From positions 1,280,001 to 1,344,000 of the forward strand of contig CAXXTF010000002.1 of assembly GCA_963665775.2 (NCBI GenBank): 64,000 bases of DNA, given 5' to 3'. The notes under the pieces were generated by a model. That model was not told the origin of the DNA. It made no database searches and saw nothing but the letters and a program-made list of their open reading frames with translations. Position 1 is the stretch's first letter. Every line of letters begins with the position of its first letter. Source of the DNA: Dehalococcoidia bacterium. Its GTDB lineage: Bacteria > Chloroflexota > Dehalococcoidia > SM23-28-2 > RBG-16-64-32. A program made the position numbers and the translations under genes. Positions 23,803 to 37,975 of the stretch are shown piece after piece.

Positions 23803-24453
23803 ATGGCGAAGATAGCGTTCATTGGAGGGACGGGACCCGAGGGGCTGGGGCTGGCAATGCGGTTCGCCAAGAGTGGCAACGAGATAATCATCGGCTCGCG
23901 GATGCCGGAACGGGCGGAGGAGGCGGCGGCCAAGGTCAAGGAGAAGGTGCCGCAGGCGCGGGTGCAGGGGCTCGCGAACGCCGAGGCGGTGGAGAAAGCC
24001 ACGATAGTCTTCGTGACGGTGCCCTACGACGCTCACAAGGACACCCTGGAGGCGCTGGCGGAGGCGATAGGGGACAAGTTGCTGGTAGACGTGGCGGCGC
24101 CCATGGTGTTCGACCGGGACGGCCCCCGGGCGATCGCGGTAGAGGAAGGCTCAGCGGCGCAGCAGGCGCGCGCGGTGGCTCAGAGCGCCAAGGTGGTCAG
24201 CGCCTTCCATCACCTGGACGGAACCGATCTGCAAAACGTAGCGAGGCCGATGCAGGGCGACGTCATCGTCTGCGGAGACCATAAGGGGGCCAAGAAGCGG
24301 ATCCTTGAGCTGGTCGAGGAGATCGAGTACGTGCGGCCCCTGGATGGCGGCGGACTAGCCAACGCGCGCTACCTGGAGCAGTGGACGGTGATGCTCCTGC
24401 AACTGAATCGCATCTACAAGCGACACAGCGGCGTTCGCATCGTGGGTGTCTAG
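23803..24453 (+). CDS. npdG: NADPH-dependent F420 reductase
   Basis: IGGTGPEGLGLA, IIIGSR, EEGSAA, VSAFH, DGGGLANA; adjacent to cofE. Confidence 0.9.
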   Translation: MAKIAFIGGTGPEGLGLAMRFAKSGNEIIIGSRMPERAEEAAAKVKEKVPQARVQGLANAEAVEKATIVFVTVPYDAHKDTLEALAEAIGDKLLVDVAAPMVFDRDGPRAIAVEEGSAAQQARAVAQSAKVVSAFHHLDGTDLQNVARPMQGDVIVCGDHKGAKKRILELVEEIEYVRPLDGGGLANARYLEQWTVMLLQLNRIYKRHSGVRIVGV

Positions 24454-24456
24454 GCG

Positions 24457-25212
24457 ATGGCAGCCCCCGAGGTGCGGGTCATAGGAGTTGCCGGATTGCC
24501 GGAGGTGGGGCAGGGAGACGACCTCCCCAGCCTGATCGTGAAGGCGGCCGCCGGGCAAGGGGCGGCACTGGAACCAGGCGACGTAGTGGTCGTCACGCAG
24601 AAGATCGTCTCCAAGGCCGAGGGACGCGTCGTGAGCCTGGCGGCGGTCAAGCCTTCGCCGGCAGCGAAGCGGCTGGCCCGCGCCACGGAGAAGGACCCAC
24701 AGCTGGTCGAGCTGATCCTGCAGGAGAGCGTGCGCATCGTGCGGCAGCGGGAAGGGGTGCTCATCACGGAGACCCGACACGGGTTCGTGTGCGCCAACGC
24801 CGGAATCGACGCCTCGAACGTGGGTGAAGGGGTAGTCTCCCTGCTGCCGGCGGACCCCGACCGCTCGGCGGCGGCGATCCGAGCCGCGATCGCGGAGCGC
24901 ACCGGCCTCGCGGTGGCGGTGATCATCAGCGACACCTTCGGACGGCCCTGGCGAGAGGGTCATATGAATGTGGCGATAGGCCTGGCCGGGATGGCTCCCT
25001 TCGCGGACTACGTGGGACAGCGAGACTCCCACGGCTACGAGCTTCGGGTGAGCAGCCTGGCCGTGGCGGACGAGCTGGCGGCGGCGGCGGAGCTGGTGAT
25101 GGGGAAGCTGTCCGCGGTACCTGTGGCCATCGTGCGGGGGTACGATTACCCGCAGGGTTGCGGCACGGCCCGCGATATGGTGCGGCCGGCAGAGCGGGAC
25201 CTGTTCCGCTAA
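24457..25212 (+). CDS. cofE: Coenzyme F420-0:L-glutamate ligase
   Basis: VVTQKIVSKAEGR, ANAGIDASN, SDTFGRPWREG, ADELAAAAELVMGK. Confidence 0.95.
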   Translation: MAAPEVRVIGVAGLPEVGQGDDLPSLIVKAAAGQGAALEPGDVVVVTQKIVSKAEGRVVSLAAVKPSPAAKRLARATEKDPQLVELILQESVRIVRQREGVLITETRHGFVCANAGIDASNVGEGVVSLLPADPDRSAAAIRAAIAERTGLAVAVIISDTFGRPWREGHMNVAIGLAGMAPFADYVGQRDSHGYELRVSSLAVADELAAAAELVMGKLSAVPVAIVRGYDYPQGCGTARDMVRPAERDLFR

Positions 25213-25272
25213 AAGGCCTACGAATCGCCTGTTCCGTTACAGGATGGAGAGCAGGGAACAGGGAGCGGCAGC

Positions 25273-26022
25273 CTAGCGGCTGAAGTACCAGTCCCAGATC
25301 TCTTCCCCCCAGAAGAGGGCGATCACGGCACCTAAAGCTAGGAAGGGCCCGTGGGGAATAAAGTCCCGGCGGCTCATGCGCTTGGAGAGCAGTAGAACCG
25401 CCGCCGCAACCCCGCCTGCCGCAGTACCGATGAACACGCCGACGACCACCGACGGTAAGCCCACGACCATGCCGATAAGGACGATCATCTTGACATCGCC
25501 CATGCCGAAGGCGTTCGCCCCGAACGGGAGGGAAAGAGCGAGGACAGCGGCGGCGATGCCGATTGCCACCAGGCCGCCGGCGAGCACCTGGAATGCGGAG
25601 GCCTCAGGCCAGGCCCAGGAAAATGCGGCGGCAAGCAAGATGGCAGGGTATACCACCCGGTTAGGGATAAGCCGCCTGTCCAAGTCCGTAAGCGTGAGGA
25701 GCAGGAAGATGGTGGCGAAGAATCCGGCCAGCAGGGCCGGGCCGAAGTCATCAAACAGCAGGGCAGCGACGAGAAACAGGGCCGCGCTCCCAAACGGCAG
25801 GACGAGCGCTCGCCAGGGAAGGCCGGTGCCGCAGGCGGGGCAACGACCCCAGCTGATGAGGAAGCCGAGGCCGGGGAGCAGGAAAGCTAGCGGTAGGGGC
25901 TGACGGCAGGAGGCGCAGCGGTGAACGGGCGCGGCCCAGGACTCACCCCTGTACAGTCGGTCGAAGACGAGATGAAGGGCCTGCCCCAAGGCGAGCCCGA
26001 TCGGAGCGGCGATCGCTTCCAT
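25273..26022 (-). CDS. A24 prepilin peptidase
   Basis: Two CxxC pairs, TDLDRRLIPN, GMGDVK, IPHGPFLALG. Confidence 0.92.
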   Translation of the reverse strand: MEAIAAPIGLALGQALHLVFDRLYRGESWAAPVHRCASCRQPLPLAFLLPGLGFLISWGRCPACGTGLPWRALVLPFGSAALFLVAALLFDDFGPALLAGFFATIFLLLTLTDLDRRLIPNRVVYPAILLAAAFSWAWPEASAFQVLAGGLVAIGIAAAVLALSLPFGANAFGMGDVKMIVLIGMVVGLPSVVVGVFIGTAAGGVAAAVLLLSKRMSRRDFIPHGPFLALGAVIALFWGEEIWDWYFSR

Positions 26023-26089
26023 TGGCTGAGCTTCCCGCTTACGAGACTAACCCACGCCTCAGCCGTGGACACCGACATCCCCCCGCTAT

Positions 26090-26111
26090 TAACCAACCTG
26101 TAACCAACCTG
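26090..26111. repeat. 11-bp tandem direct repeat TAACCAACCTG x2
   Basis: Exact adjacent copies in the divergent peptidase/pilin intergenic region. Confidence 0.7.
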
Positions 26112-26255
26112 GCCTCCCTGTTCACTGCATGTTTACCCCAGCCCGTGCGAGCCTAAGTTTGGCAAGACTGATGATCGCACTCTACTAGGTGGAACGCAGA
26201 TGAGCAGGAAGGATTAGCCTCGGGGTGAAAATTCGTTCACAGACCGGTCGCGACC

Positions 26256-26282
26256 GTAACAGGGGCGCAGAAACATCCATCT
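26256..26282 (+). promoter_or_regulatory. Putative ECF promoter of flp pilins
   Basis: GTAAC-N17-CATCT; same motif recurs at 28854 and 37950. Confidence 0.6.
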
Positions 26283-26431
26283 AACTTATCGGAAATCAAC
26301 ATAACGCACCTGCGCCTTGGCAGACAGCCGGAAGGAGGTGGAGAACCGCACCACACAAACGATATCGAGGGACGAGAACCGTTCGTCCAAGAAGCAAGCT
26401 AACGAACAAGGTAGAGAGAAAGGAGGAGACT

Positions 26432-26614
26432 ATGTTCTCCAAGATTAACGAAGTGCTGCTGAGCCTGGTGGCCCGCTTTGAGCAGGAAGAGGGACAGGGG
26501 CTGGCCGAGTACGGCCTTATCCTGGCGCTCGTCTCCATCGCCGCCATCACCGCTCTAGGTGTCTTGGCAGTCGCGATCACCGGCGTCTTTGGCGACGTCA
26601 CCGCCGCGCTGTAA
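26432..26614 (+). CDS. flp: Flp type IVb pilin 1
   Basis: EEGQGLAEYGLILALVS; strong AGGAGG SD. Confidence 0.93.
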   Translation: MFSKINEVLLSLVARFEQEEGQGLAEYGLILALVSIAAITALGVLAVAITGVFGDVTAAL

Positions 26615-26645
26615 GGTGATCTAGGAGGTTGAGGTAGAGACCCCC

Positions 26646-26831
26646 ATGCTTTCCAAGATTAGTGAGGCGCTGCTGCAGTTGCAGGCCCGCTTTGAGCGGG
26701 AAGAGGGACAGGGGCTAGCCGAGTACGGCCTTATCCTGGCGCTTGTCTCGATCGCGGCCATCACTGCTCTAGGTCTTATAGCAGTCGCGATCACCGGCAT
26801 GCTCGGGGATGTCACCGCCGCGTTCGGCTAG
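26646..26831 (+). CDS. flp: Flp type IVb pilin 2 (near-identical tandem paralogue)
   Basis: EEGQGLAEYGLILALVS. Confidence 0.93.
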   Translation: MLSKISEALLQLQARFEREEGQGLAEYGLILALVSIAAITALGLIAVAITGMLGDVTAAFG

Positions 26832-26847
26832 ACCTAACCGAAGCCGA

Positions 26848-27004
26848 CTGCAGCCCCTGTCCCGCCTCGAGTTCGAGGAGGGACAGGGGCTGGCTGAGTA
26901 CGGCCTGCTTGCTAGCTCTCATCGCCGTGGTGTCCGTCGCCGCCCTGATCGCCCGGGGCCCCACCATCGCCGGGAAACTGGGCAAGATCGCAGCGGCATT
27001 CTAG
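26848..27004 (+). pseudogene. Third Flp pilin, frameshifted
   Basis: EFEEGQGLAEYGLL, then one extra base near 26911, then LALIAVVSVAALIARGPTIAGKLGKIAAAF*; no clear ATG. Confidence 0.8.
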
Positions 27005-27211
27005 TAGAGCTACCCAGGCAGCGTTAGGGACCGACACCTGGAGGGACAACGACCAAATGCCGATGATGCAGGGGAACGGGGTCACGAGCTCACGGGCCGG
27101 AACCCGGAATTCATGTCCTCTTTCCCTTCGCTCCCTCGCCCGCTACCCATCGGCCTTCCGGCGAGAGCTTGGCGAGAGGGCTCCGGGAAACTGGACAAAG
27201 GAAGAGAATAT

Positions 27212-27655
27212 ATGAATCCCAACTTTAGCGATAACGATGCTGCCTCTGCTGCTGGCAACGGTGGCCGGCCGCTGAAGCGCGCCACGAAGAGAAGAGGAGA
27301 CAGAGAGAGAGGACAGAGCCTGGCGGAGTTCGCCATCGTGGACTTTGGCATGGGCTTCCACTCCTACATCACGGTGACGAATTCGGTCCGGGAAGGCGCC
27401 CGCGTCGGGGCCATCGGCGCGGATGCCGCCACGATTGAGACGCGAGTCCGGGACACCGCAGGCACCCTGGACCAGGCAAACTTGACGGTCACCGTCACCA
27501 ACGCCCAGGGTGCCCCGGGAGAGTCCGTGCTGGTGGACACGTCATATCAGTACGAGTTCATTAGTCCGCTCGCCGGCATCGTCCAGTTCGTTTCCGGTGG
27601 CACGATAGGGCCCACGCTAACGCTCTCTTCTACCGCCGATATGCGACTAGAGTAG
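27212..27655 (+). CDS. TadE-like pseudopilin lacking most of its hydrophobic helix (possible pseudogene)
   Basis: ERGQSLAEFAIVDFG...VTNSVREGARVG; the segment between EFA and IVDFG is missing. Confidence 0.75.
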   Translation: MNPNFSDNDAASAAGNGGRPLKRATKRRGDRERGQSLAEFAIVDFGMGFHSYITVTNSVREGARVGAIGADAATIETRVRDTAGTLDQANLTVTVTNAQGAPGESVLVDTSYQYEFISPLAGIVQFVSGGTIGPTLTLSSTADMRLE

Positions 27656-27671
27656 TGAGGAGATAGCACTG

Positions 27672-28799
27672 ATGTTGTGGCAGAAGCTCCGCAAGATATC
27701 CGGCGAGCGCGGCCAGGGTCTGATCCTGGCCGCATTAGGTATGACGGTCTTTCTCGGCTTCGTTGCGCTAGCCGTGGACGGCGGCCTCTATCTCCACGAG
27801 CGTCGCCAGCTTCAGAACGCCGCCGACGCCGCCACCCTGGCCGGCGTAGTCTTCCTCCCCGGCGATACGGCCGCTGCGGAAAAGGCGGCGCGGGATTGGG
27901 CGGCTAATAACGGCATGGAGCCGGACGAGATAGCGGCGGTAGAGTTCCAGCACAGTAACACACTCATCCGGATGAGAGTGCAGCGGGACGTTCCCGCCGT
28001 GTTCGCGCGCGTGCTAGGCTTCATCAACTTTAAGGTGCACGCCAGCGCGGCCGCCCAGATAGGATCCATAAGTGGCGTCACCGGCCTGGCACCCTTCGGC
28101 GTCCTGGAGGGAGCTGTCAACTACTGCGACACTCCGCCGCCTCTGGACTGCCTGGTGACCCTTAAATACGATGTGAAGAATTCCGGCGCTACTATCGGTG
28201 ACCTGAACTTTGATGGCAAGGGCGGCGGCGGCCAGGAACTGTTCACCCTGATAAAGGGCGGAAATAGAATCCCGGTCTGTTCCGTAAACGAACCATCCCC
28301 CCCTCCAGGATGCCAGACCATAGAGCCCCAAAAAACGGGCAATACGACCGGCAAGATCCGGGAGGGCGTCATCTGGCGCCTTGACGAGACCACAGCCCAG
28401 TGCGACACGATAGCCGAAGTGGTCGGGCCAGACGTGGATGACGACGGTAAGCTTGAAATAGTCACAGAGCGCAACCCTTGGAGCAAGGCGGCATCGGACA
28501 CCGACGACGACGGCGGCACCTGCGACAACTTGCCCGGAGGCATAGGCAGCTGTCGTCTTCTCGCCATTCCGGTGATACAAGGTGTTGACGATATTTCGTT
28601 TCCGCCTCCGAACGAGGCCGTGACAAACGTTAGATTTGCCCTCTTCTGGCTGCTTCCCTTTGAGAATAACGGGGCTTGCTCGGGTAATTCCTGTGAGATA
28701 CAGGGCTACTTCATCGACGCCGAGGTCAGCGTTAACGGCCTGCTGGGCGCTTTCAACCCAGAGAATAACCCGTTCGTGGTCTCCAAGTTGGTGGAGTAG
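27672..28799 (+). CDS. TadG-related pseudopilin/tip adhesin
   Basis: GERGQGLIL..ALAVDGG..RQLQNAADAATLAG; Cys-rich, Asp-rich C-terminal domain. Confidence 0.85.
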   Translation: MLWQKLRKISGERGQGLILAALGMTVFLGFVALAVDGGLYLHERRQLQNAADAATLAGVVFLPGDTAAAEKAARDWAANNGMEPDEIAAVEFQHSNTLIRMRVQRDVPAVFARVLGFINFKVHASAAAQIGSISGVTGLAPFGVLEGAVNYCDTPPPLDCLVTLKYDVKNSGATIGDLNFDGKGGGGQELFTLIKGGNRIPVCSVNEPSPPPGCQTIEPQKTGNTTGKIREGVIWRLDETTAQCDTIAEVVGPDVDDDGKLEIVTERNPWSKAASDTDDDGGTCDNLPGGIGSCRLLAIPVIQGVDDISFPPPNEAVTNVRFALFWLLPFENNGACSGNSCEIQGYFIDAEVSVNGLLGAFNPENNPFVVSKLVE

Positions 28800-28853
28800 A
28801 TCCGACATCCATTAACGAGGTGCTGTTTATTCCGTCAGCAATGGGGAGACTTC

Positions 28854-28880
28854 GTAACAGTAGTCGCCCTCCCGCCATCT
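28854..28880 (+). promoter_or_regulatory. Putative ECF promoter of cpaB operon
   Basis: CGTAACAG-N14-CCATCT, with ends identical to the flp promoter. Confidence 0.6.
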
Positions 28881-28918
28881 GTATGATTGTAACGTCCCGC
28901 AAGTAAGAGGAGAGAGCC

Positions 28919-29827
28919 ATGTTAAAGGTGCTGACCCTGCGCAATCAGAGGAACAAGCTGCCCCTGATATTGGCCTTGTTGTTGGGCCTCCTGGCGGCAA
29001 TGCTGACGGCAGTCTACCTCAGCAGCGCCGGCGACGATGGCGGGCAGAGCGCCGGCGCTCCGGTTATCGAGACCGCGTCGGCGGTAGTAGCAGCGGAGGA
29101 GATCCCAGCCGGAACCCAAATCACGGCCGACATGGTGACCGTCAAATCAATCCCTACGGATCCGGTGATCGCCAACGTTTTCCAGGTTAGCGGGGATGTG
29201 GTAGGGAAGGTTGCCCTCGTGCCCATTGTTCCCGGCGAGCAGATCATGGCCAGCCGCGTGGTGGCGATATCTGAAGCGGGACAAGTCTTAAATGCAGAGA
29301 ACCTGGCGGACACAGTGCCAATCGAGAAGGAAACCAACCCCTGTGAGATTACCGATTGCGGTTTGCGAGCAGTCTCCGTGCGGGTGGCACCGGCCACAGC
29401 CGCCGCGGGCTTGATCCGGCCCGGCGACCAGGTGGACGTTATAGCTGCCTTCAACGATGGCTCCGCTCTGACCGTGGTAACCGATGTGGAGGTCCTGGCC
29501 CTGGACACAGACTTTGAGCGCGTGATCAACTCGGGAGCCGCCGACACATCCGAGCTAGCAGTACTGGAGGGCGGCGAGGGGAATCCGGAGGCTGCCACAG
29601 CCACCCTGGCCCTGTGGCCGTCCGAGGCCCAGAAGGTGGCGGCTGCGGAGGAGATGACGGACAAGAATACCGACTGTCAGGGCAGCCTGCGCCTCTCCCT
29701 GCGCCATACAGGGCAGCCGGGGACGTTCGAGGTACCTGTGGGCCAGGGATACTGTGCCTACCTATTCGCGCTAGCTTGGGGCCTGGAAGTAGGTCCTGTA
29801 CCTGAGCAACTGGTTCCTCAGGATTAG
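28919..29827 (+). CDS. cpaB: Flp pilus assembly protein CpaB/RcpC
   Basis: N-terminal TM, SAF domain (VVAAEEIPAG), GLRAVSVRV, GLIRPGDQVDV. Confidence 0.9.
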   Translation: MLKVLTLRNQRNKLPLILALLLGLLAAMLTAVYLSSAGDDGGQSAGAPVIETASAVVAAEEIPAGTQITADMVTVKSIPTDPVIANVFQVSGDVVGKVALVPIVPGEQIMASRVVAISEAGQVLNAENLADTVPIEKETNPCEITDCGLRAVSVRVAPATAAAGLIRPGDQVDVIAAFNDGSALTVVTDVEVLALDTDFERVINSGAADTSELAVLEGGEGNPEAATATLALWPSEAQKVAAAEEMTDKNTDCQGSLRLSLRHTGQPGTFEVPVGQGYCAYLFALAWGLEVGPVPEQLVPQD

Positions 29828-29840
29828 GGTGGATAGATAG

Positions 29841-31094
29841 ATGAAACGCAACCCCCGGGTAATCATCGTCGATCAGAACACGACGGGTAGGGATGACGTC
29901 CAGAAGATGCTCGCTCTCGCCGGCTTCGCCGTAACGGGGGAGGCTGGCTACGGGATGGAGGCGATCGCTCTAGCCAAAGAGACGGGGCCCGACGTGGTCG
30001 TCATCTCCCTGGAGGAGCCCATCGTAAGGGCCCTGCAAACGGTGCAGGCTATGGCAGACCTCTTGCCGCAATCGCCCATTATCGCCTACTCCGCCTCTCG
30101 AGACCCGAACAGCCTACGCAAAGCGATGCTGGCCGGGGTCAACGATTACCTAATAACACCCCTCAACGAGGAGGAGCTCATCCAGTCAGTGCACACCGTG
30201 CTGAGCCAGGAGGAGCGGCGAAGGGCCCGCATAGCCGGGGAGATGGATGAGCCAGTGACCAGCCGCATCGTGATCACGGTATTCGGCGCCAAGGGTGGCA
30301 TCGGCAAGAGCACGATCTCCACGAACCTCGCCGCAGCGCTGGTTCAGAAGACTAACCAGTCAGTAGTGCTGGTCGATCTGGATACACGATTTGGGGATGT
30401 CGCAATTCTTATGGATGTCCCGGTCGAGCGAAGCATCGCCGACTTGGCGGTTCCGGAGGAGGAGATCAGTCGAGAGCTCGTTCAGGAATGCATCTATCAG
30501 CACAAGACGGGTGTGGCGATCCTCCCAGCACCGATGAGGCCGACGGACTGGCGCAACGTCCACGCCGGCCACATCGAGCGGTCTGTGAAGTTGCTGGCAC
30601 AGAGCTATGACTACGTGATTCTGGACACCCCCGGCACCTTTAACGACGTAGTGGCCCGATCCCTGGAGATGGCCACCCTGGTGTTGCTGGTGGCAACGAT
30701 GGACTTGGCCAGCCTGAAGGATACCTTGTTGGCGATCGACATGCTGCAATCCTGGAACTTCCCGCAGGAGAAGCTGAAGCTGGTGATCAACGCCACTAAC
30801 GAGGCGCACAAGGCGGATCCCCAAGAGGTGAAACGAATGTTGGGCCGCGATCTGTTTTGGTCAGTCCCCTACGACCGAAACATCAGCACGGCCACGCAGT
30901 TGGGGATACCGGTTGTGATGGCGAAGCCGGACTCCAGGGCTTCCGAAAGCCTGGTGGCAATGGCCTACGCCCTGAGCGGGGTGCGCCGCCAGCAGCAGCA
31001 AGATCAGAACGGCAAGAACCCTTCCAAAAGCAACCTAATAAGCCGAATCCTTGGGCAGAGACCGGAAGAAAAGCCGGAAGTAGCGGTGGAGTAG
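29841..31094 (+). CDS. cpaE: CpaE/TadZ pseudo-receiver plus MinD-like ATPase
   Basis: Receiver-like N-terminus, GAKGGIGKST, VDLDTRFGD, ILDTP. Confidence 0.88.
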   Translation: MKRNPRVIIVDQNTTGRDDVQKMLALAGFAVTGEAGYGMEAIALAKETGPDVVVISLEEPIVRALQTVQAMADLLPQSPIIAYSASRDPNSLRKAMLAGVNDYLITPLNEEELIQSVHTVLSQEERRRARIAGEMDEPVTSRIVITVFGAKGGIGKSTISTNLAAALVQKTNQSVVLVDLDTRFGDVAILMDVPVERSIADLAVPEEEISRELVQECIYQHKTGVAILPAPMRPTDWRNVHAGHIERSVKLLAQSYDYVILDTPGTFNDVVARSLEMATLVLLVATMDLASLKDTLLAIDMLQSWNFPQEKLKLVINATNEAHKADPQEVKRMLGRDLFWSVPYDRNISTATQLGIPVVMAKPDSRASESLVAMAYALSGVRRQQQQDQNGKNPSKSNLISRILGQRPEEKPEVAVE

Positions 31095-31098
31095 AAAG

Positions 31099-32451
31099 AT
31101 GACCAGATGGCAATCTACGGAGCTAGATACAGCCCCAGCACGCCCCGCTTCTGGTACTCCCAGGAGTGTTCCCGGCCGCTACAACGAGGATATGGAGCAA
31201 TTGGTCTTCCGCATGCACCAGACCCTGATTGAGGAGCTGGACGCGGACCAGATTAGCGCCATGCCGGCGGACGAGCGCCGGAAACTGGTGGAGCAGGCGG
31301 CTCAGACGGTGCTCCGGCGTGAGTTACCCACTGTGGGCGGCATCACGCGTGACCAGGTCGTCTCCCGGGTGGTGGACGAAGTAGTAGGACTGGGCCCTAT
31401 TGACATCCTGATCAGAGACGCCTCAATTTCGGAGGTGATGGTTAACGCCCCGGGGGAGATATTCTTCGAGCGGGAGGGCATCCTCTACCTGAGCGATGTG
31501 TCCTTCCGAGATGAGGACCACGTCCAGCGGATCATCGAGCGGATCATCGCCCCGCTGGGTCGCCGCGTGGATGAGTCATCGCCAATGGTGGATGCCCGCC
31601 TACCAGACGGCTCACGAGTGAACGTAATCATTCCGCCCGTGGCCCCTAAGGGCCCCACCATCACCATCCGTAAGTTCCGGGCTGACAAACTGACCATGGA
31701 GGACCTGATCAGCGCATCAACCCTCTCCAAAGAGCTAGCGGAGTTCCTCGAGGCCTGCGTGAAGATGAAGCTGAACATCCTGATCTCCGGCGGTACAGGC
31801 ACCGGCAAGACGACGTTCCTCAACGCCCTTTCGGCATACATCCCAGAGAGCGAGCGCATCCTGACCATCGAAGACCCGGTGGAGATAAAGATGCAACAGC
31901 CGCATGTCGTAAGCCTGGAGGCCCGACCGGCCAACATCGACGGCAAGGGCGAGATCACGCAGCGGGAGCTCTTGCGTAACACCCTCCGCATGCGGCCGGA
32001 TCGAATCATCATCGGCGAGGTGCGGGGCCCAGAGGCGTTCGATATGTTGAACGCCATGAACACCGGCCACGAAGGCTCTCTCTCCACGGTTCACGCCAAC
32101 TCGCCCCGGGACGCCTTAGCCCGCATCGAGAACATGGTGCTTATGGCCAACCTGGAGCTGCCCGACCGGGCGATCCGAGAGCAGACCGCCTCTGCTCTAC
32201 ATCTGATAATCCAGCTGGCCCGCTCCACGGACGGCGTGCGCCGGGTGACTCACGTTACGGAGGTCACCGGCATGGAGGGGCAAATAGTTACGATGCAGGA
32301 CCTGTTTCTCTTCCGGCAGACAGGTGTGGATCAGGAAGGGAAAGTCCTGGGAAGTATGGGTGCTACCGGCATTCGGCCCGGTTTCGCTGAGCGATTTCAG
32401 GCGGCCGGGATCAAGCTGCCGGAGCGGCTGTTCCTAGGCGCGATCAGGTGA
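31099..32451 (+). CDS. cpaF: Tad assembly ATPase CpaF/TadA
   Basis: RRVDESSPMVDARLPDGSRVN, GGTGTGKTT, LRMRPDRIIIGEVRG, MNTGHEG. Confidence 0.95.
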   Translation: MTRWQSTELDTAPARPASGTPRSVPGRYNEDMEQLVFRMHQTLIEELDADQISAMPADERRKLVEQAAQTVLRRELPTVGGITRDQVVSRVVDEVVGLGPIDILIRDASISEVMVNAPGEIFFEREGILYLSDVSFRDEDHVQRIIERIIAPLGRRVDESSPMVDARLPDGSRVNVIIPPVAPKGPTITIRKFRADKLTMEDLISASTLSKELAEFLEACVKMKLNILISGGTGTGKTTFLNALSAYIPESERILTIEDPVEIKMQQPHVVSLEARPANIDGKGEITQRELLRNTLRMRPDRIIIGEVRGPEAFDMLNAMNTGHEGSLSTVHANSPRDALARIENMVLMANLELPDRAIREQTASALHLIIQLARSTDGVRRVTHVTEVTGMEGQIVTMQDLFLFRQTGVDQEGKVLGSMGATGIRPGFAERFQAAGIKLPERLFLGAIR

Positions 32452-32455
32452 TCAC

Positions 32456-33433
32456 ATGGACCCCATAGTCATTCTGATCGCAGCGATGGTGCTCCTGGCC
32501 GTCTTCTCATTGGTGATTGGTCTCGGCGGCTCCCACAACAAGGAAGGGCTGGGGGATCGACTGGAGACATTCCGGTCGGACCAGCAGGCTCAGGCAGACC
32601 CAGAAGCGAATAGCCTTAGCCTTCGGAAGCGATCCTATAGCGACTTCCCCATCCTGAACACCTTCCTTTCGCACCTTAAGGGCTCGGAGAAAGTGGCTTT
32701 GCAGCTGGATCGAGCCGGAGTCCCGTTACGAGTGGGCGAGTATTACTTGATCCGCTACACTGTGGCGGCGCTCTTCTTCGTGGTACCTTTCGCTTTTAGC
32801 CAGACGCTCTTAACGCTGATCCTGAGCGTGCTCCTTGCCACAGTTGGCTATGCGCTGCCCGCAATGTATATAGGGCGGAGGAAAGCATCCCGTATGTCCC
32901 GGATGAACGCCCAGTTGGCGGAGCTGCTAGATCTAGTAGCCAATTCCCTCAAGTCCGGTTACGGCCTAATGCAGAGCCTTGATTTCGCGGCGCGGCAGAT
33001 AAGCGACCCGCTTTCCGCAGAAGTGCGCAGGACGTTGCGCGACGCCAACCTGGGCATGAGCACTGAAGAGGCGCTGGACGCCCTGGGGGAACGTGTTTCC
33101 AGTCCGGACCTGGACATGGTTCTGACGGCCATCAATATCCAGCGGTCAGTAGGCGGCAACCTGGCCGAGATTCTGGAGTCTGTTACCTTCACCATGCGAG
33201 AGCGGAAACGTATCCGGGGAGAGATCTCAACCCTGACCTCACAGGGGATAATGACCGGCATCCTCATCGGGGGACTACCCGTAGGCGTAGGCCTGCGCTT
33301 CATGGTCATCAATCCAAGTTACATGAGCTTACTGTTCACGGAGACAGCGGGCCGCATTATCCTCCTCGCAGCCGTGGGGCTGGAGGGCCTGGGCATCCTA
33401 TCGATAAAGCGGGTCCTGGCCATCGAGGTATAG
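32456..33433 (+). CDS. tadB: TadB (T2SS F family)
   Basis: ANSLKSGYGL, AINIQRSVGGNLAEIL. Confidence 0.9.
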   Translation: MDPIVILIAAMVLLAVFSLVIGLGGSHNKEGLGDRLETFRSDQQAQADPEANSLSLRKRSYSDFPILNTFLSHLKGSEKVALQLDRAGVPLRVGEYYLIRYTVAALFFVVPFAFSQTLLTLILSVLLATVGYALPAMYIGRRKASRMSRMNAQLAELLDLVANSLKSGYGLMQSLDFAARQISDPLSAEVRRTLRDANLGMSTEEALDALGERVSSPDLDMVLTAINIQRSVGGNLAEILESVTFTMRERKRIRGEISTLTSQGIMTGILIGGLPVGVGLRFMVINPSYMSLLFTETAGRIILLAAVGLEGLGILSIKRVLAIEV

Positions 33434-33445
33434 ATAGTAGGAGTC

Positions 33446-34360
33446 ATGCTGATAGCGCTCATCGCTTGCGCCGTGTTCGGGTCGGTAGCACTTCTGGTCA
33501 TCGGCCTGGGCCGCCGCACGTCCTCAGTTATGGAGTCTCGACTGGACGAGTTCCGCGACCAAACAACGATGTTTGACGGGGAAGAGGCTGACCTAAACAT
33601 ATCCTTCGCCGCCCGCATCCTGAAACCGGGGATGGAAGGTATGGCGGGGGCGTTCGGATCGGTGCTGCCGGCCTCACTACTGACCAAACTAGAACGACAG
33701 CTGGTCATGGCTGGCAACCCAATGACGTTGAACACCTTCGTGGGTATCTGGGCCGCCTGCGTCCTCTTCATGACAGGATTTATCCTGTTTGCTGTGATAA
33801 CGGTAGGCATGACGGTAGGACCTCTGCAGGCATTCATGGTGCTGGTCTTCGGCATAGTGGGGTGGATGTTGCCGCGCATATGGCTAAGCGGAAGGGTGAA
33901 GGCTAGGCAGAAGGAGGTCGTAAAGTCGTTACCGGACGCCCTGGACCTGGTGACGGTGTGTGTGGAGGCAGGGCTGGGCCTGGACGCCGCTCTGGCCCGC
34001 GTGGCCAGTTGGAGCGATGGGCCCCTGGCGGATGAGATCACCCGGATGCTGCGAGACATCACGATGGGAAAGCTGCGCCGGGAGGCCCTCATAGAGCTGA
34101 CTGAGCGCCTGGAGGTGGAGGAGCTAACCAGCTTCGTCAACTCCGTGATACAAGCTGAACAGTTGGGCGTGGGTATAGCCCAGGTGCTCCGTGTGCAGTC
34201 AGAGCAGATCAGGACCCGTCGCCGCCAGAAGGCGGAGAAAGCCGCTCATGAGGCAGCGATCAAGATGCTCTTCCCATTGGTGCTGTTCATATTCCCGGCG
34301 TTCATCCTGGTGATATTGGGCCCAGCCGGGATCCGCATCACGCAGTCACTCGCCAAATAG
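33446..34360 (+). CDS. tadC: TadC (T2SS F family)
   Basis: LPDALDLVTVCVEAGLGLDAAL, QAEQLG, KMLFPLVLFIFP. Confidence 0.92.
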   Translation: MLIALIACAVFGSVALLVIGLGRRTSSVMESRLDEFRDQTTMFDGEEADLNISFAARILKPGMEGMAGAFGSVLPASLLTKLERQLVMAGNPMTLNTFVGIWAACVLFMTGFILFAVITVGMTVGPLQAFMVLVFGIVGWMLPRIWLSGRVKARQKEVVKSLPDALDLVTVCVEAGLGLDAALARVASWSDGPLADEITRMLRDITMGKLRREALIELTERLEVEELTSFVNSVIQAEQLGVGIAQVLRVQSEQIRTRRRQKAEKAAHEAAIKMLFPLVLFIFPAFILVILGPAGIRITQSLAK

Positions 34361-34376
34361 GTAAGGAGCGATAGAT

Positions 34377-34754
34377 ATGGCTCTGGGGCAGAAGATCCGC
34401 GCATTACGCGGAGAGCTGGGCATGAGCCAGGCGCAGCTGGCCTCCTCCGCCAAGCTGAGCCAGGGCTATCTGTCACAGCTTGAGAACGACGAGGTGCAGA
34501 ACCCCAGCGCCGCCGTGATCTTCCGGCTGTCCAAGGCTATTAACGCGGATCCGGGCCGGCTGTTCCAGGCGGCCGGCTACTCCGAGATAGAAGCAAGCAA
34601 GAGCAACGGAAGCGACAGCTTCGACGCCACCGTGGACCCAGAACTATTGCGCTTCATGGCCCACCTCCCTCGGGAGCAGCAAACGCATCTCCTCCGCCTA
34701 CTGCGTACATTGGAGCGCAGGACGACCGCGGAGGCGGAGGCCAGCCGCCCCTAA
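34377..34754 (+). CDS. XRE-family HTH regulator 1 (SinR-like)
   Basis: LGQKIRALR..MSQAQLA..LSQGYLSQLE..NPSA; short C-terminal helical domain. Confidence 0.9.
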   Translation: MALGQKIRALRGELGMSQAQLASSAKLSQGYLSQLENDEVQNPSAAVIFRLSKAINADPGRLFQAAGYSEIEASKSNGSDSFDATVDPELLRFMAHLPREQQTHLLRLLRTLERRTTAEAEASRP

Positions 34755-34812
34755 TCGAGGCACTCAGGCAAGACAATTCCGCCCTGCGCCAGCCGGCGGT
34801 GCGAGCCTCCAG

Positions 34813-35181
34813 ATGAATGAGATGATCCAGGTAAGAAACGAAACAAAGGGAACGGTAGTGGCAGACGAGACGCAGGTAGCCGACAGTGTCCGCACCCGGT
34901 TCTGGGGCCTCCTCGGTCGGCCTTCCCTGCCGGAGGGACACGGCCTCCTACTGCGACCCAGTTCCAGCATCCATACCGCCTTCATGCGGTTCGCCATCGA
35001 CGTGGTGTTTCTGGACAGGGAGAACCGGGTGGTAAAGGTCGTGCCGGAGATGAAGCCGTTCCGGATGGCGGTAACCTGGCCCTGCGCCCACAGCGCCCTG
35101 GAGCTACCGGCCGGAGCAGCGGCGCAGGCCCGGATAGAGCGCGGCGACCAGTTGGTAATAGCTGGGCAGGTAGCACGATAG
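34813..35181 (+). CDS. DUF192 family protein
   Basis: RFWGLLGR..GLLL..SIHTAFMRFAIDVVFLD..LELPAG. Confidence 0.88.
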   Translation: MNEMIQVRNETKGTVVADETQVADSVRTRFWGLLGRPSLPEGHGLLLRPSSSIHTAFMRFAIDVVFLDRENRVVKVVPEMKPFRMAVTWPCAHSALELPAGAAAQARIERGDQLVIAGQVAR

Positions 35182-35199
35182 GCGGATGAAAGTGTGCAT

Positions 35200-35269
35200 A
35201 TTGGCATACCAATCAGATACAGACGACCCATATCTTATATTGACAGGCAGAGGGGAACCGACGGACAAT
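35200..35269 (+). promoter_or_regulatory. Promoter and palindrome upstream of XRE 2
   Basis: ATTGG-cata-CCAAT at 35200-35213; TTGACA(35240)-N18-GACAAT. Confidence 0.45.
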
Positions 35270-35300
35270 CTGGAGAGCCCCGTGCTGAGAGTAGGAGCAG

Positions 35301-35768
35301 ATGAACCTAGGAGATAGGATACGCGGGCTGCGCGACACGCTTGGCCTGACTCAGGGTCGACTGGCCAACAGTGCCTCGCTGAGCCAAGGCTATCTGTCAC
35401 AGCTGGAAAAAGGGGACGTCAAGAACCCTTCCGCAGCTGTCCTCCTGCGGATAGCGCGGGCCACGGATGTGGACCCTGACGAACTGTTCGAGGCGGCCGG
35501 TTACCCCACAGTACGAACCCTGCGCCAGATCTATCGGAGCTATGAGTCGACCATAGAGCCAGACCTGCTGAGTTATCTCGGTCGCCTTCCCCGGGACCGC
35601 CAGAGACGCCTCTTCCACCTCCTGGAAGGGCTGCAGAGCCTGCTGCAAGGCACGGACCGAGATGGAGACATAGACGGATTCCGGAGGGGAGGCGATGAGC
35701 CGATGGCCGGCCCCCGTAGCGAGGAGCGCCACCCTCATCTCGAGCCCCTTCCCGTCTCAAAGAAATAA
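35301..35768 (+). CDS. XRE-family HTH regulator 2 (paralogue of regulator 1)
   Basis: LGDRIRGLR..LSQGYLSQLE..NPSAAV; LSQGYLSQLE is identical in XRE 1. Confidence 0.9.
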   Translation: MNLGDRIRGLRDTLGLTQGRLANSASLSQGYLSQLEKGDVKNPSAAVLLRIARATDVDPDELFEAAGYPTVRTLRQIYRSYESTIEPDLLSYLGRLPRDRQRRLFHLLEGLQSLLQGTDRDGDIDGFRRGGDEPMAGPRSEERHPHLEPLPVSKK

Positions 35769-35771
35769 AGC

Positions 35772-35951
35772 ATGGCAGACTCGTCGGAGAATCGATCGTC
35801 GCTTGCGGATAAGATCGACCCTGACCTGCTCCAGATGCTGGCCAGAATGCCCAGGCGCCAGCAGCGACAGGTGCTCCTCCTGCTCATGGTGGTGGAGAAC
35901 CTGCTACATGAGATGATGCGGGAGCGGCGCTCAAGGGAAGAGCTGGAGTAG
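35772..35951 (+). CDS. 59-aa HTH-less homologue of the XRE C-terminal domain (SinI-like antirepressor candidate)
   Basis: Not in the ORF track. MADSSENRSSLADKIDPDLLQMLARMPRRQQRQVLLLLMVVENLLHEMMRERRSREELE* aligns with the C-termini of both XREs. Confidence 0.75.
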   Translation: MADSSENRSSLADKIDPDLLQMLARMPRRQQRQVLLLLMVVENLLHEMMRERRSREELE

Positions 35952-35981
35952 CGCCTAAGAGGGGGATCGAGGACGGTGATG

Positions 35982-36009
35982 GCCCGCCAATCAGGCGGGC
36001 TTATTTTAT
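35982..36009 (+). terminator. Rho-independent terminator
   Basis: GCCCGCC-aatca-GGCGGGC followed by TTATTTTAT. Confidence 0.7.
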
Positions 36010-36035
36010 GTGGGCGCAGTCGTCCCCCGTAGCAG

Positions 36036-37220
36036 CTAGGGAATGACCACCGCTCGCATACTTTCGGCGATGGTCTGCAGGTCACCAGGACCCATCACGG
36101 GTCCATCGATGAAGTGGATGATCGTGCGCAGGCCGGCCCGGTCGAACACCAGGCTCTGAGCGCCGCCTTCACCCCAGACTATCTGGCTACCGGACGTCTG
36201 CCAGGACCCCTGGACGTAGGTGGCAGGGGTCCCATCAGACAGGATGCGGTCCAGAGCGAAGCCCTGCAGAACCGCGATGTCGTCGCCGGAGGCGCGCTCC
36301 TGATAGATAAGGATTGTGGGCGGGCTGATCGACTCCAGGCCGACATCCCCTGCGTAGGCGAGGAGGAATACACCGCCTTCGCCCGCTGTCAGGGGCTGCG
36401 GGTAGTAGGTGGAGGAGACCTGCCGAAAGCCGGGAGGGATACTCGTTGGCTCCCACACCGGCTGCCCCAGCAGCGCTGAGGCCTCACTGAGAGTGACATC
36501 GGCACCCTCCACGACATCGGCGTAGGAAGGGACGATGGGTGGAGCGCCGGTCTCAGATACGCCCATATAGTCGCCCACGATCCGGACCACTTGAGCCACC
36601 GGATGGTTGGCGAGGCCGGTGGCCGGGATAGGCCCCAGGGCAGCTACCAGGAGGGCGGCGGCGGCACCGGAGGCCGCGAGCCTGGGCCAAAGACGGCCCC
36701 CGAGGTCCCCGAAGAGCCGGCCACGCGGATGGGCTGGTCGGAGCGGAGCCTGCGGCTTCAGTCCCGCACCCTCCCGGGTGGGCTCGGCCAGGGCCAGCTC
36801 CCCCTCGCGAGCGCGGATGCGGGCCTGTACCTGCTGCCAGACGGCACCCCGCTGTTCTTCGGCAAGGATCGCGCCCTGCTCAGCCACGCGGCGACGGAGA
36901 GCGCTGATATCCTGCAACCCCTGGTTATCGAACTCCAGCCCGCTGTCGGTGACAGCCGACTCGACAGGGCCCTCAATCGAATCCGTGAACCTATTGGGCT
37001 CTTCCGTCTTCGTGTGCCGGAGGCGGCTGAGCACCTCCCGCCAGACTACCGCCTCATGCTGGGCAGCCGCGTGGGCCGAGGAGCGAGCGGCCTCCAGGCG
37101 AATCCTGGCAATACCCAGCAGTTCCTGCAACTCGTAGTCATCTAGGGGGTCGGGCTGACGCCCCTGAACGAGAGCTTCGACAGCGCGGGCCAGCTGACCA
37201 GCCCGCTCATACTCTCTCAC
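36036..37220 (-). CDS. Putative membrane anti-sigma factor with extracytoplasmic DUF4367-like domain
   Basis: Overlaps the sigma stop codon; cytoplasmic N-terminus, one hydrophobic segment, then PTSIPPGF...ILIYQE...GSW...LVFDRAGL. Confidence 0.7.
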   Translation of the reverse strand: MREYERAGQLARAVEALVQGRQPDPLDDYELQELLGIARIRLEAARSSAHAAAQHEAVVWREVLSRLRHTKTEEPNRFTDSIEGPVESAVTDSGLEFDNQGLQDISALRRRVAEQGAILAEEQRGAVWQQVQARIRAREGELALAEPTREGAGLKPQAPLRPAHPRGRLFGDLGGRLWPRLAASGAAAALLVAALGPIPATGLANHPVAQVVRIVGDYMGVSETGAPPIVPSYADVVEGADVTLSEASALLGQPVWEPTSIPPGFRQVSSTYYPQPLTAGEGGVFLLAYAGDVGLESISPPTILIYQERASGDDIAVLQGFALDRILSDGTPATYVQGSWQTSGSQIVWGEGGAQSLVFDRAGLRTIIHFIDGPVMGPGDLQTIAESMRAVVIP

Positions 37221-37866
37221 CGGCCGACACCCCCTGCGACTTGTATGCGGTCCCGCAGTTTGCGAAGGGCACGGAAGACGGTAACCCGCACGTTGACTTC
37301 GCTGGTCTTGAGGACCTCCGCTATCTCCCTATTTGTGAGTTCGGCGTCAAACTTCAGGGAGATAATCTCCTGCTCGCGCCGAGGCAACGTTCGAAGGACG
37401 GCACTGAGATCCCTGATACGCTCCTTGCGAAGGAGCGTATCCTCCGGATCACGAGATTGCTGTATGAACTCGTTCTGCCGGACCGCCTCCTGGACGGCCT
37501 TGGCGGCGGGCTTCTCTTTGCGCCAGTGAGAGGACACCTCATTACGGGCTATGAGGACACCTCATTACGGACTATAGTGAATAGCCAAGGGCCGAAGGCA
37601 TCTGGCGACCGCAGGGCATGTACCTTGATGAAGGCCTTCTCGAAGATATCGGATACGATGTCCAGGGACAGCTCCTTATCTTGAACCCGCCCGTACACGT
37701 AGGCGAACACCTTCGAGAAGTGCCGGCTGTAGAGCTCAGCGAATTCGCCGGCCGGGCCGCTCTGCAGGCTGGGCTCAGGGGCCGGGCCGGCCTTCGATTT
37801 AAGCCTGGTGCGAGCGGCGGTTCTATCAGTAGTGCGCTGGGGCAGGGCTGCGCGAGCTGTTGTCAT
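37217..37866 (-). pseudogene. ECF sigma factor frameshifted by a 23-bp tandem duplication
   Basis: Region 2 (FAELYSRH..AYVYGR..FEKAF..FGPWLFTI.RN) in 37549-37866 and region 4 (LPRREQEIISLKF..LTNREIAEVL..VRVTVFRALRKLR) in 37217-37537. Confidence 0.88.
37530..37575. repeat. 23-bp imperfect tandem duplication
   Basis: GAGGACACCTCATTACGGGCTAT / GAGGACACCTCATTACGGACTAT (one mismatch). Confidence 0.9.
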
Positions 37867-37949
37867 CCTTCGCTCCTCGTCATCCGCCGGACCGATCGGT
37901 CGGGGGCGGTGGGGAGGCCGCTTGGCCTTCTGGAATCTGGATGAACAAT

Positions 37950-37975
37950 AGACGCGGCATGGCCAAGCCCGTTAC
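37950..37975 (-). promoter_or_regulatory. Putative autoregulatory ECF promoter
   Basis: Minus-strand GTAAC-N16-CGTCT, 84 bp upstream of the sigma ATG. Confidence 0.55.

Follow-up and report, generated by a model that had tools for sequence, protein, structure and literature searches.

What does a protein without a DNA-binding domain do when its gene lies directly behind that of a regulator whose C-terminal domain it resembles? The question is raised by a Dehalococcoidia bacterium of the Chloroflexota (assembly GCA_963665775.2, contig CAXXTF010000002.1, positions 1,280,001 to 1,344,000), in which a stretch of 64,000 nucleotides (nt), here called the window, carries a Tad pilus operon followed by the genes of two XRE-type regulators, XRE1 and XRE2, and an open reading frame (ORF) of 59 amino acids (aa). 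A DNA-binding dimer that is titrated by a headless paralogue, lacking the helix-turn-helix (HTH), is one of the few simple routes to sharp thresholds and bistable choices, and SinR/SinI of Bacillus subtilis is the textbook bacterial case. In that system, SlrA is a further HTH-less partner, standing beside SlrR. A preliminary description of the window had proposed that the three genes form a SinR/SlrR/SinI-like triad controlling Tad adhesion. Sequence comparison confirms that the small ORF is a real gene, conserved and under selection, and that its product is a paralogue of the regulators' own C-terminal domain. The trio as a whole appears as an analogue of SinR/SinI rather than a member of that family, and probably as an added layer on Tad expression rather than its primary switch.

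All three ORFs lie on the forward strand at the positions first assigned to them. XRE1 (34377-34754, +) encodes 125 aa, with an HTH_3 domain (Pfam, E 2.6e-12) and a C-terminal helical domain that putatively serves in pairing. XRE2 (35301-35768, +) encodes 155 aa, with an HTH_3 domain (Pfam, E 8e-12) followed by a C-terminal domain of three helices (residues 71-116); the tail behind it is disordered. The ATG of the small ORF (35772-35951, +) stands 3 nt past the XRE2 stop codon, and the unit made up of these two genes is closed by an intrinsic-terminator-like hairpin (35981-36001, +) with a T-run to 36010, which agrees with the terminator already noticed there. The shared recognition stretch and related C-termini reported for the two regulators are equally evident: an alignment of 113 residues shows 48% identity (E 1e-37), and the stretch LSQGYLSQLE...NPSAAV is the same in both. 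With its start 16 nt after the stop codon of tadC, XRE1 probably closes the conserved gene set of the tad transcript.

The small protein consists of the regulators' C-terminal domain without the DNA-binding head, together with an extra conserved helical extension at its own C-terminus. In BLASTP, 17 of 42 aligned residues are identical to the C-terminus of XRE2 (E 3e-8) and 12 of 30 to that of XRE1 (E 1e-6). Profile-profile comparison with hhalign, using profiles built from alignments of 20, 20 and 15 orthologues, matched the small protein to the XRE tails with probabilities of 96.3% (E 1.6e-9) and 95.9% (E 5.3e-9). Furthermore, a joint alignment of 36 tails revealed a core common to all three classes, D-x-x-L-L-x-x-L...P-R-x-x-Q...L-x-x-L. 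This core is preceded by a structured helix in XRE2 and by a Gly/Glu-rich linker in XRE1, and the two XRE positions after the Leu run, E-G, are hydrophobic (M-V) in the small protein. The earlier assignment of the small ORF as the HTH-less domain common to both XRE C-termini is upheld by all three comparisons.

Structure prediction gives the same picture. The AlphaFold2 model of XRE2 (predicted local distance difference test, pLDDT, 80) contains HTH helices at residues 3-14, 18-24, 29-37, 45-55 and 59-65, and the five-helix HTH_3 fold of XRE/Cro-C1 regulators is thus found both by Pfam and in the model. Past the HTH, the model shows helices 71-84, 87-95 and 98-116, followed by the disordered tail. 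The small-protein model (pLDDT 87) has three matching helices, at residues 3-14, 17-25 and 28-58.

The small ORF behaves as a gene wherever its relatives can be followed. A search of 5.8 billion proteins returned 352 homologues at E <= 0.01. Among the 120 matches listed, length is nearly constant (59 aa in 115, 60 aa in 3 and 58 aa in 2) and identity to the query is 76-98%. Several homologues in records of metagenome-assembled genomes (MAGs) of Chloroflexi/Dehalococcoidia are labelled "hypothetical protein", so that the term "unannotated" used in the preliminary description holds for the list of ORFs on which it was based and not for public MAG records. Among 18 copies of exactly 59 codons, dN/dS is about 0.10 (median dN 0.17, median dS 1.46, 136 pairs), with 39, 18 and 53 of the 59 columns variable at codon positions 1, 2 and 3, respectively. 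No match in the related genomes or in the survey of the order contains an internal stop. No RNA data set holding the sequence was listed among the public runs.

The position of the gene is conserved as well. In related genomes, an ORF of 54-59 aa begins -1 to +14 nt from the XRE2 stop in 20/20 loci, and the small gene stands right behind an unfused XRE2 in 115/115 further loci in which the contig permits the test. Because the window copy has no Shine-Dalgarno sequence and the stop-start spacing is tight everywhere, the small gene is likely to be translationally coupled to XRE2. Of 41 related genomes, 33 carry XRE2, and it is these 33 and no others that carry the small gene. In the order as a whole, the small gene is present in one copy each in 54/65 genomes, covering five of the six families; the sixth family has it in 0/6 genomes (91-99% complete), and 0/400 other genomes sampled from the phylum contain it at E <= 1e-5.

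To which family does the shared domain belong? Pfam yields no family for the tails or the small protein at E values up to 1, and none for the 36 tail and small sequences at E up to 10. We take the SinI/SinR multimerization domain family to be the one that Pfam names SinI. NCBIfam likewise has no family for the domain; its SlrR model matches only HTH residues 3-66, with 31-34 bits against a cut-off of 250. A sequence search of the PDB with the shared domain gave no match and no SinI, and the PDB sequence matches of full-length XRE2 cover only residues 1-70, that to SinR being confined to HTH residues 1-64. In structure, the HTH of the XRE2 model superposes well on that of SinR (Z 12.0-12.4, root-mean-square deviation (rmsd) 0.9-2.6 Å, 29-30% identity), roughly tied with other Cro/C1 HTHs; 1b0n_A aligns over residues 2-69 only, and the full-length neighbors (the RghR model, DdrO, SinR-SinI) superpose poorly past the HTH. 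Foldseek found nothing for the small-protein model in the PDB at E <= 0.001, and a wide fold search returned only generic helical matches, the best being NblA at Z 5.2, with SinI not listed. A protein atlas search with the small protein recovered only its own unnamed cluster (score 0.85).

Searching 1.84 billion proteins with a profile of the domain yields only 42 representatives of 50%-identity clusters at E <= 0.001. On these grounds the shared domain is a small, lineage-restricted family without a Pfam family, and a new small protein family is thereby defined. Since no Pfam family covers the domain and homology to SinI could not be detected, the trio is best described as an analogue of SinR/SinI and no family member. 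Two further proteins of 99 aa, P0157 and P0160, are HTH-less; in them a low-complexity N-terminus precedes the core of the pairing domain, and they may represent headless forms that were derived independently.

Five of the 42 representatives are natural fusions, in which a single chain joins an XRE1-like half (HTH and tail), a linker and an XRE2-like half. These proteins (P0144, P0145, P0152, P0155 and P0158) are 262-285 aa long and share 44-46% mutual identity. Four loci with a single fused frame could be located (L107:5947-6753, L138:5224-6075, L150:1778-2602 and L154:1478-2296), one in a record titled Candidatus Curtissbacteria and three on metagenome contigs. In 4/4 of them there is room downstream, yet no small gene. 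By the Rosetta-stone argument, the existence of such fusions suggests that the shared domain joins XRE1 and XRE2 into a working pair and that the small protein acts on this pairing. The small protein would be dispensable or inoperable once the pair is covalently joined, which fits an action on the pairing equilibrium.

The genomic context of the trio is also conserved. The gene order of the window is kept in 20 further loci (L021-L040): a divergent prepilin peptidase gene, then Flp, TadE, (TadG), CpaB, CpaE, CpaF, TadB, TadC, XRE1, (DUF192), XRE2 and the small gene, with, convergent to the trio, a 394-aa protein of no known family and then a sigma factor gene of the extracytoplasmic function (ECF) type. 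TadC of orthologue grade (at least 51% identity) occurs in 30 genomes, each of which also has the trio, and adjoins XRE1; the eight genomes without the trio have only paralogous TadC (<=46% identity). Across the 41 genomes, the trio is found only with the orthologous type of Tad locus. A block of the kind that the preliminary description had suggested looking for beside tad genes in Chloroflexota exists, next to one type of Tad locus and in the 54 of 65 genomes of a single order.

A set of 156 additional loci from genome and metagenome collections, which partly overlap the genomes already counted and are thus not all independent, extends this result. Here, 115 loci have an unfused XRE2 followed by the small gene, in 13 XRE2 lies too close to the contig end for judgement, 24 have no clear XRE2 orthologue, and 4 have XRE2 with downstream room and no small gene. 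TadC adjoins XRE1 in 103 loci; XRE1 is at the contig end in 14 and has room but no TadC in 6. The DUF192 gene of the window (34813-35181, +; PF02643, E 9.7e-20) proved to be an optional insert. It stands between the XRE genes in only 43/120 loci, and we rejected it as part of the module; the fixed block of XRE, DUF192, XRE and small gene that had been envisaged does not hold.

Two kinds of promoter appear to serve the locus. Upstream of the flp/tad operon lies an ECF-sigma-type promoter, GTAAC-N17-CATCTA (26256-26283, +), and the same motif, GTAAC-N16-CGTCTA (37949-37975, -), precedes the ECF sigma gene itself (37217-37866, -). An autoregulated ECF sigma regulon is characterized by one -35/-10 motif before both the sigma gene and its target operon; here GTAAC-N16/17-CRTCT, judged by the general form of ECF promoters, stands before the sigma gene and the flp operon. 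In related loci, the motif is found upstream of the sigma gene in 57/60 cases compared with 10/670 control windows, and the 2.35-Mb genome contains 6 sites, including these two. Most likely, the tad operon, with XRE1, is transcribed by the neighboring autoregulated ECF sigma factor. Because the tad promoter is of this type, the XRE trio would form a second regulatory layer. That it acts as the sole or principal switch of Tad is unlikely; we regard it as probably an added layer.

XRE2 and the small gene have a predicted promoter of their own, of the sigma-70 type (TTGACA-N18-GACAAT, 35240-35269, +), and the arrangement TTGAC-N17-20-NANAAT is kept in 22/27 loci. A 14-bp palindrome, ATTGGCATACCAAT (35200-35213, no strand assigned), lies 26 nt upstream of the -35 element as the single exact site in the window and is a candidate operator. 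Among 114 unique XRE2 upstream regions, 18 contain this box with up to one mismatch, in every case at a distance of 24-28 nt from the TTGAC that follows; the figure for control windows is 0/545. In whole genomes the box is rare: it occurs in 17/41, all of them trio holders, and in 0/8 genomes without the trio, compared with one hit of a reversed control pattern. In many loci, by eye and uncounted, an inverted repeat GTCAA...TTGAC overlaps the -35 element and is likewise a candidate operator. At the other end of the tad operon, the palindrome GTGAA-N6-TTCAC (26225-26240, +), 15 nt upstream of the flp -35 element, is a candidate regulator site. Of 18 flp upstream regions, 4 have it in exact form and another 3 in degenerate form, whereas no more than 2 loci were reached in any of 50 shuffles; the whole genome holds four such sites.

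Elsewhere in the genome of the window, the 14-bp box has a single copy (L041:4012-4025, contig 1, around 269611). It overlaps the -10 element of a promoter, TTGACA-N17-TATACT, that is predicted to drive two genes, for a hydrophobic peptide of 29 aa and for a DUF5317 membrane protein; this association is not kept in relatives. A conserved regulon could not be defined by the box, the DUF5317 orthologues of relatives lying on other contigs than the extra boxes. Words of 8-10 nt shared among the flp, XRE2 and sigma upstream regions amounted to short matches only and were not trusted.

How far does the likeness to SinR/SinI go? According to the published account (PMC3163267), SinR/SinI has the same elements: an XRE-type repressor with an N-terminal Cro/C1 HTH and a short helical C-terminal domain, a headless protein of roughly 57 aa (SinI) that is homologous to this C-terminal domain only, interface residues conserved between the repressor and the small protein, and a second HTH paralogue (SlrR) with the same tail. 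In the same source, sinI is transcribed separately and under the control of signals (PMC3163267). Unlike sinI under its phosphorelay, the small gene of the trio lies downstream of an XRE gene and is translationally coupled to it, with one promoter and one terminator. The C-terminal domain of the trio is without detectable homology to that of SinR/SinI in Pfam and PDB sequence searches, it is modeled as three helices instead of a two-helix hook, and the small protein has its extra helix extension. The context also differs, with a Tad pilus operon and an ECF sigma pair in a Chloroflexota order. Of the likeness to SinR/SinI, the layout and the headless paralogue remain, while homology of the domain is not detectable and a separately transcribed antagonist gene is not what the loci show.

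Other systems resemble the trio in part. The best full-length structural neighbors of the XRE2 model are DdrO/CapH-type repressors and B. subtilis RghR (Foldseek 9a7f, 6jq1 and 6rnx, E 2e-5 to 1e-4; 9a7f Z 13.7), which have a similar size and combine an HTH with a small helical dimerization domain. Past the HTH, however, rmsd values reach 10-15 Å, and sequence matches are confined to residues 1-70. DdrO/CapH-type repressors are controlled by a partner metalloprotease. No ImmA/IrrE-type metalloprotease was found with Pfam in 16 neighboring ORFs (23803-37537) or in the kept gene order, so that the trio, lacking an adjacent metalloprotease gene, does not belong with DdrO/IrrE, CapH/CapP or ImmR/ImmA. 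Clostridioides difficile SinR/SinR' consists of two adjacent XRE paralogues of which one antagonizes the other by protein-protein interaction (PMC5864091). It is similar to the trio in having two XRE paralogues in one locus and in the possible interplay between XRE1 and XRE2; unlike the trio, it has no third headless protein, and the XRE1-XRE2 fusions speak for two partners that cooperate and need not antagonize each other. Rhizobium leguminosarum PraR/CinS likewise has a small protein that inactivates an XRE-type repressor of attachment and biofilm genes. It differs in organism and in its quorum-sensing input, and CinS is likened to the small protein by description only, with no sign here of paralogy to the repressor domain.

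As the best-supported reading, we lean, with modest confidence, toward titration as in SinR/SinI: the headless paralogue would bind the XRE tails and thereby limit the two-headed DNA-binding dimers. The trio would be a lineage-specific module of three regulatory proteins that rests on one common helical domain for pairing. More specifically, XRE1 and XRE2, which are Cro/C1-type DNA binders with near-identical recognition helices, would pair via this domain. Translational coupling would supply the 59-aa protein along with XRE2. It would most likely bind the C-terminal domain of XRE1 and/or XRE2, and the resulting one-headed complexes would be unable to hold a palindromic operator. In this way, the small protein would set the threshold for two-headed DNA-binding forms, either XRE1-XRE2 or homodimeric. 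XRE1 would be supplied by the ECF-sigma-driven tad transcript, and XRE2 and the small protein by their own sigma-70-type promoter, so that the module would couple the activity of the Tad operon to a second transcriptional output, be it feedback on the locus or other targets.

A more elaborate version can be drawn by the same analogy, although we consider it tentative and rather doubtful. It would see an independently evolved exchange circuit like SinR/SlrR/SinI, in which three proteins compete for one unrelated interface and form a threshold or memory element. Tad-driven XRE1 and an autoregulated promoter for XRE2 and the decoy would give a feedback that decides between piliated and non-piliated cells, and the extra helix of the decoy might serve as a second input or output.

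Several observations weigh against titration or against a role in Tad control. The small gene shares one promoter with XRE2 and is coupled to it, which implies a fixed ratio to its target; because the antagonist would be made in this fixed ratio, a separately triggered switch as with sinI is not possible. The small protein is better conserved than the regulators it would titrate (mean column identity 84% versus 66% and 62% for the XREs). Its last helix is 17 residues longer, and residues 43-59 are nearly invariant and absent from the XREs; since a pure decoy does not need them, another partner or role is suggested. On the side of Tad, the ECF-type motif stands upstream of flp in 17/18 loci. 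The flp promoter of the window lacks the 14-bp box, which is found in just the 18 of 114 XRE2 upstream regions mentioned above; with one mismatch, the genome of the window has 2 sites, compared with 1+1 hits of the reversed control, and ten extra sites in genomes have no obvious common neighbor gene. The fused loci have no tad genes as neighbors. Finally, genome G026 (93% complete) has no TadC match, and its tad operon and the adjacent XRE1 are gone. Of the earlier claim that the trio controls Tad, the adjacency to the Tad locus is thus borne out, while a role as sole or main switch is made unlikely by the ECF type of the flp promoter, and G026, which does without Tad, speaks against a role in Tad alone.

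The main alternative is that XRE2 has the small protein as an obligate, stoichiometric subunit. As a co-regulator or assembly factor, it would then build a hetero-oligomer on which DNA binding or higher-order assembly depends, and would be no antagonist. Co-translation (at -1 to +14 nt in all 20 loci), conservation beyond that of the XREs and the invariant extra helix fit a subunit as well as or better than they fit titration. Perfect co-occurrence with XRE2 also speaks for it, and even the loss of the small gene exactly in XRE1-XRE2 fusions would fit a bridging role made redundant. However, the small protein has no DNA-binding head and would form a single-headed complex with one XRE unless larger assemblies arise, and the known headless paralogues of XRE pairing domains are antagonists such as SinI (PMC3163267, PMC5864091). 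We consider the subunit possible but rather improbable.

It is unlikely, though somewhat less so than what follows, that the trio are general regulators that merely travel with the Tad locus, with targets elsewhere, and that Tad is set by the ECF sigma factor alone. The flp promoter, whose ECF-type motif matches that of the sigma gene's own promoter, would be expected in this case, as would the position of the 14-bp box, which is missing at flp and has its second copy at the -10 element of the small-peptide/DUF5317 operon. G026, which keeps XRE2 and the small gene without Tad, and the fused XRE1-XRE2 genes, which do not lie beside tad genes, point in the same direction. Such a loose association is, however, hard to reconcile with XRE1 standing at the 3' end of the tad transcript in 103/109 judgeable loci, with the restriction of the trio to the orthologous Tad locus type in 41 genomes, and with the conserved palindrome just upstream of the flp -35 element.

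A third alternative, which we hold to be quite improbable, is that the main partner of the small protein is no XRE at all. Its unique helix would then act on the ECF sigma/anti-sigma pair or on a Tad component, and the likeness to the XREs would reflect its origin only. Residues 43-59, invariant or nearly so and absent from the XREs, would suit such a role. The sigma and putative anti-sigma genes are kept as direct neighbors, and in G026, despite the loss of Tad, the ECF sigma gene is intact and still lies together with XRE2 and the small gene, all three following directly on F420 genes (L209, contig 52, 3819-6696). Yet the core in common with the XREs is strongly conserved as well, and the small gene is lost exactly in the fusions. 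A resemblance between the core motif (LPRxxQ) and the start of region 4 of the neighboring sigma factor (17 columns, 41% identity, probability 1.7%) was rejected as evidence; Pfam gives no sigma or anti-sigma match, and the best structural matches are the generic helical ones at Z <= 5.2. That the small ORF is a decayed, non-functional piece of a duplicated XRE gene, as its shortness, the missing Shine-Dalgarno sequence in the window and its resemblance to XRE tails might suggest and as the preliminary description had allowed for, is virtually excluded by length and sequence kept in 352 homologues, a dN/dS of about 0.10 and a single intact copy, free of internal stops, in 54/65 genomes of the order.

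Under the titration reading, the logic of SinR/SinI seems to have arisen anew, in a lineage for which metagenomes are the only source and on another domain that belongs to no described family. The very conserved 59-aa protein, its two HTH partners and the fusions without the small protein form a natural test bed, and because all parts are small and look soluble, E. coli could serve for testing the central claims, with no need to grow the organism itself. Together, the ECF sigma factor and the XRE trio offer a first concrete hypothesis of how Tad pili are regulated in this group. In line with the preliminary description, which knew of no such system, full-text literature searches, with subscription journals outside their scope, found no description of such a module beside tad genes or in Chloroflexota.

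The surroundings of the trio in the window are those of a genuine Tad/Flp (type IVc) locus, as had been recognized. The Flp-type EGQGLAEYGLILALV motif marks the ORFs of two pilin genes (26432-26614 and 26646-26831, +), which are kept in related loci; the prepilin peptidase gene lies divergently upstream of them (Pfam). The machinery genes follow at 27113-34360 (+), with Pfam matches for TadE, a TadG-like protein, CpaB, CpaE (REC and ParA-like), CpaF, TadB and TadC. The locus thereby holds Flp pilin, prepilin peptidase, CpaB, CpaE/TadZ, CpaF/TadA, TadB, TadC and TadE/G pseudopilins. CpaE has its receiver domain at the N-terminus, and no secretin was seen among the window ORFs scanned with Pfam. 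F420 genes flank the tad locus in the window, as they do the remaining genes in G026, which also has a lone XRE2-like paralogue elsewhere in its genome.

Downstream and on the opposite strand, the 394-aa protein (36036-37220, -), which has no Pfam or NCBIfam family, is convergent to the trio, overlaps the stop of the sigma gene and is kept in most related loci; it is a putative membrane anti-sigma factor. In the window, the sigma gene is split. A 23-bp tandem duplication (around 37540-37575) places region 2 (in 37549-37866, -) and region 4 (in 37217-37537, -) in separate frames. The site is spanned gap-free by contigs of three runs from three studies, one of which may be the source of the window; for run X12, none of the contigs listed covers 37517-37594, which bears on the split in neither direction. 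The likely cognate sigma factor of the genome's only Tad locus may, as judged from these reading frames, be inactive.

Apparent reading-frame damage was also observed within Tad loci. In L040 (G013, contig 1), CpaE, CpaF, TadB and TadC match in two or three pieces each, and a TGA interrupts XRE1. XRE2 and the small gene seem undamaged there, so that either the Tad locus is decaying or the assembly is rich in frameshifts. A scan with Rfam at gathering score gave no family in the window and five loci. In one family of the order (L028, L030, L031, L034 and L036), the ECF-type promoter stands about 270-290 nt before flp, and the leader, about 60-280 nt upstream of flp, is a long conserved G+C-rich stretch without an Rfam match that may be a cis-regulatory RNA. 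Past the two intact pilin genes of the window, a third Flp-like copy (26809-27027) looks frameshifted, with the Flp motif and the hydrophobic segment in different frames.

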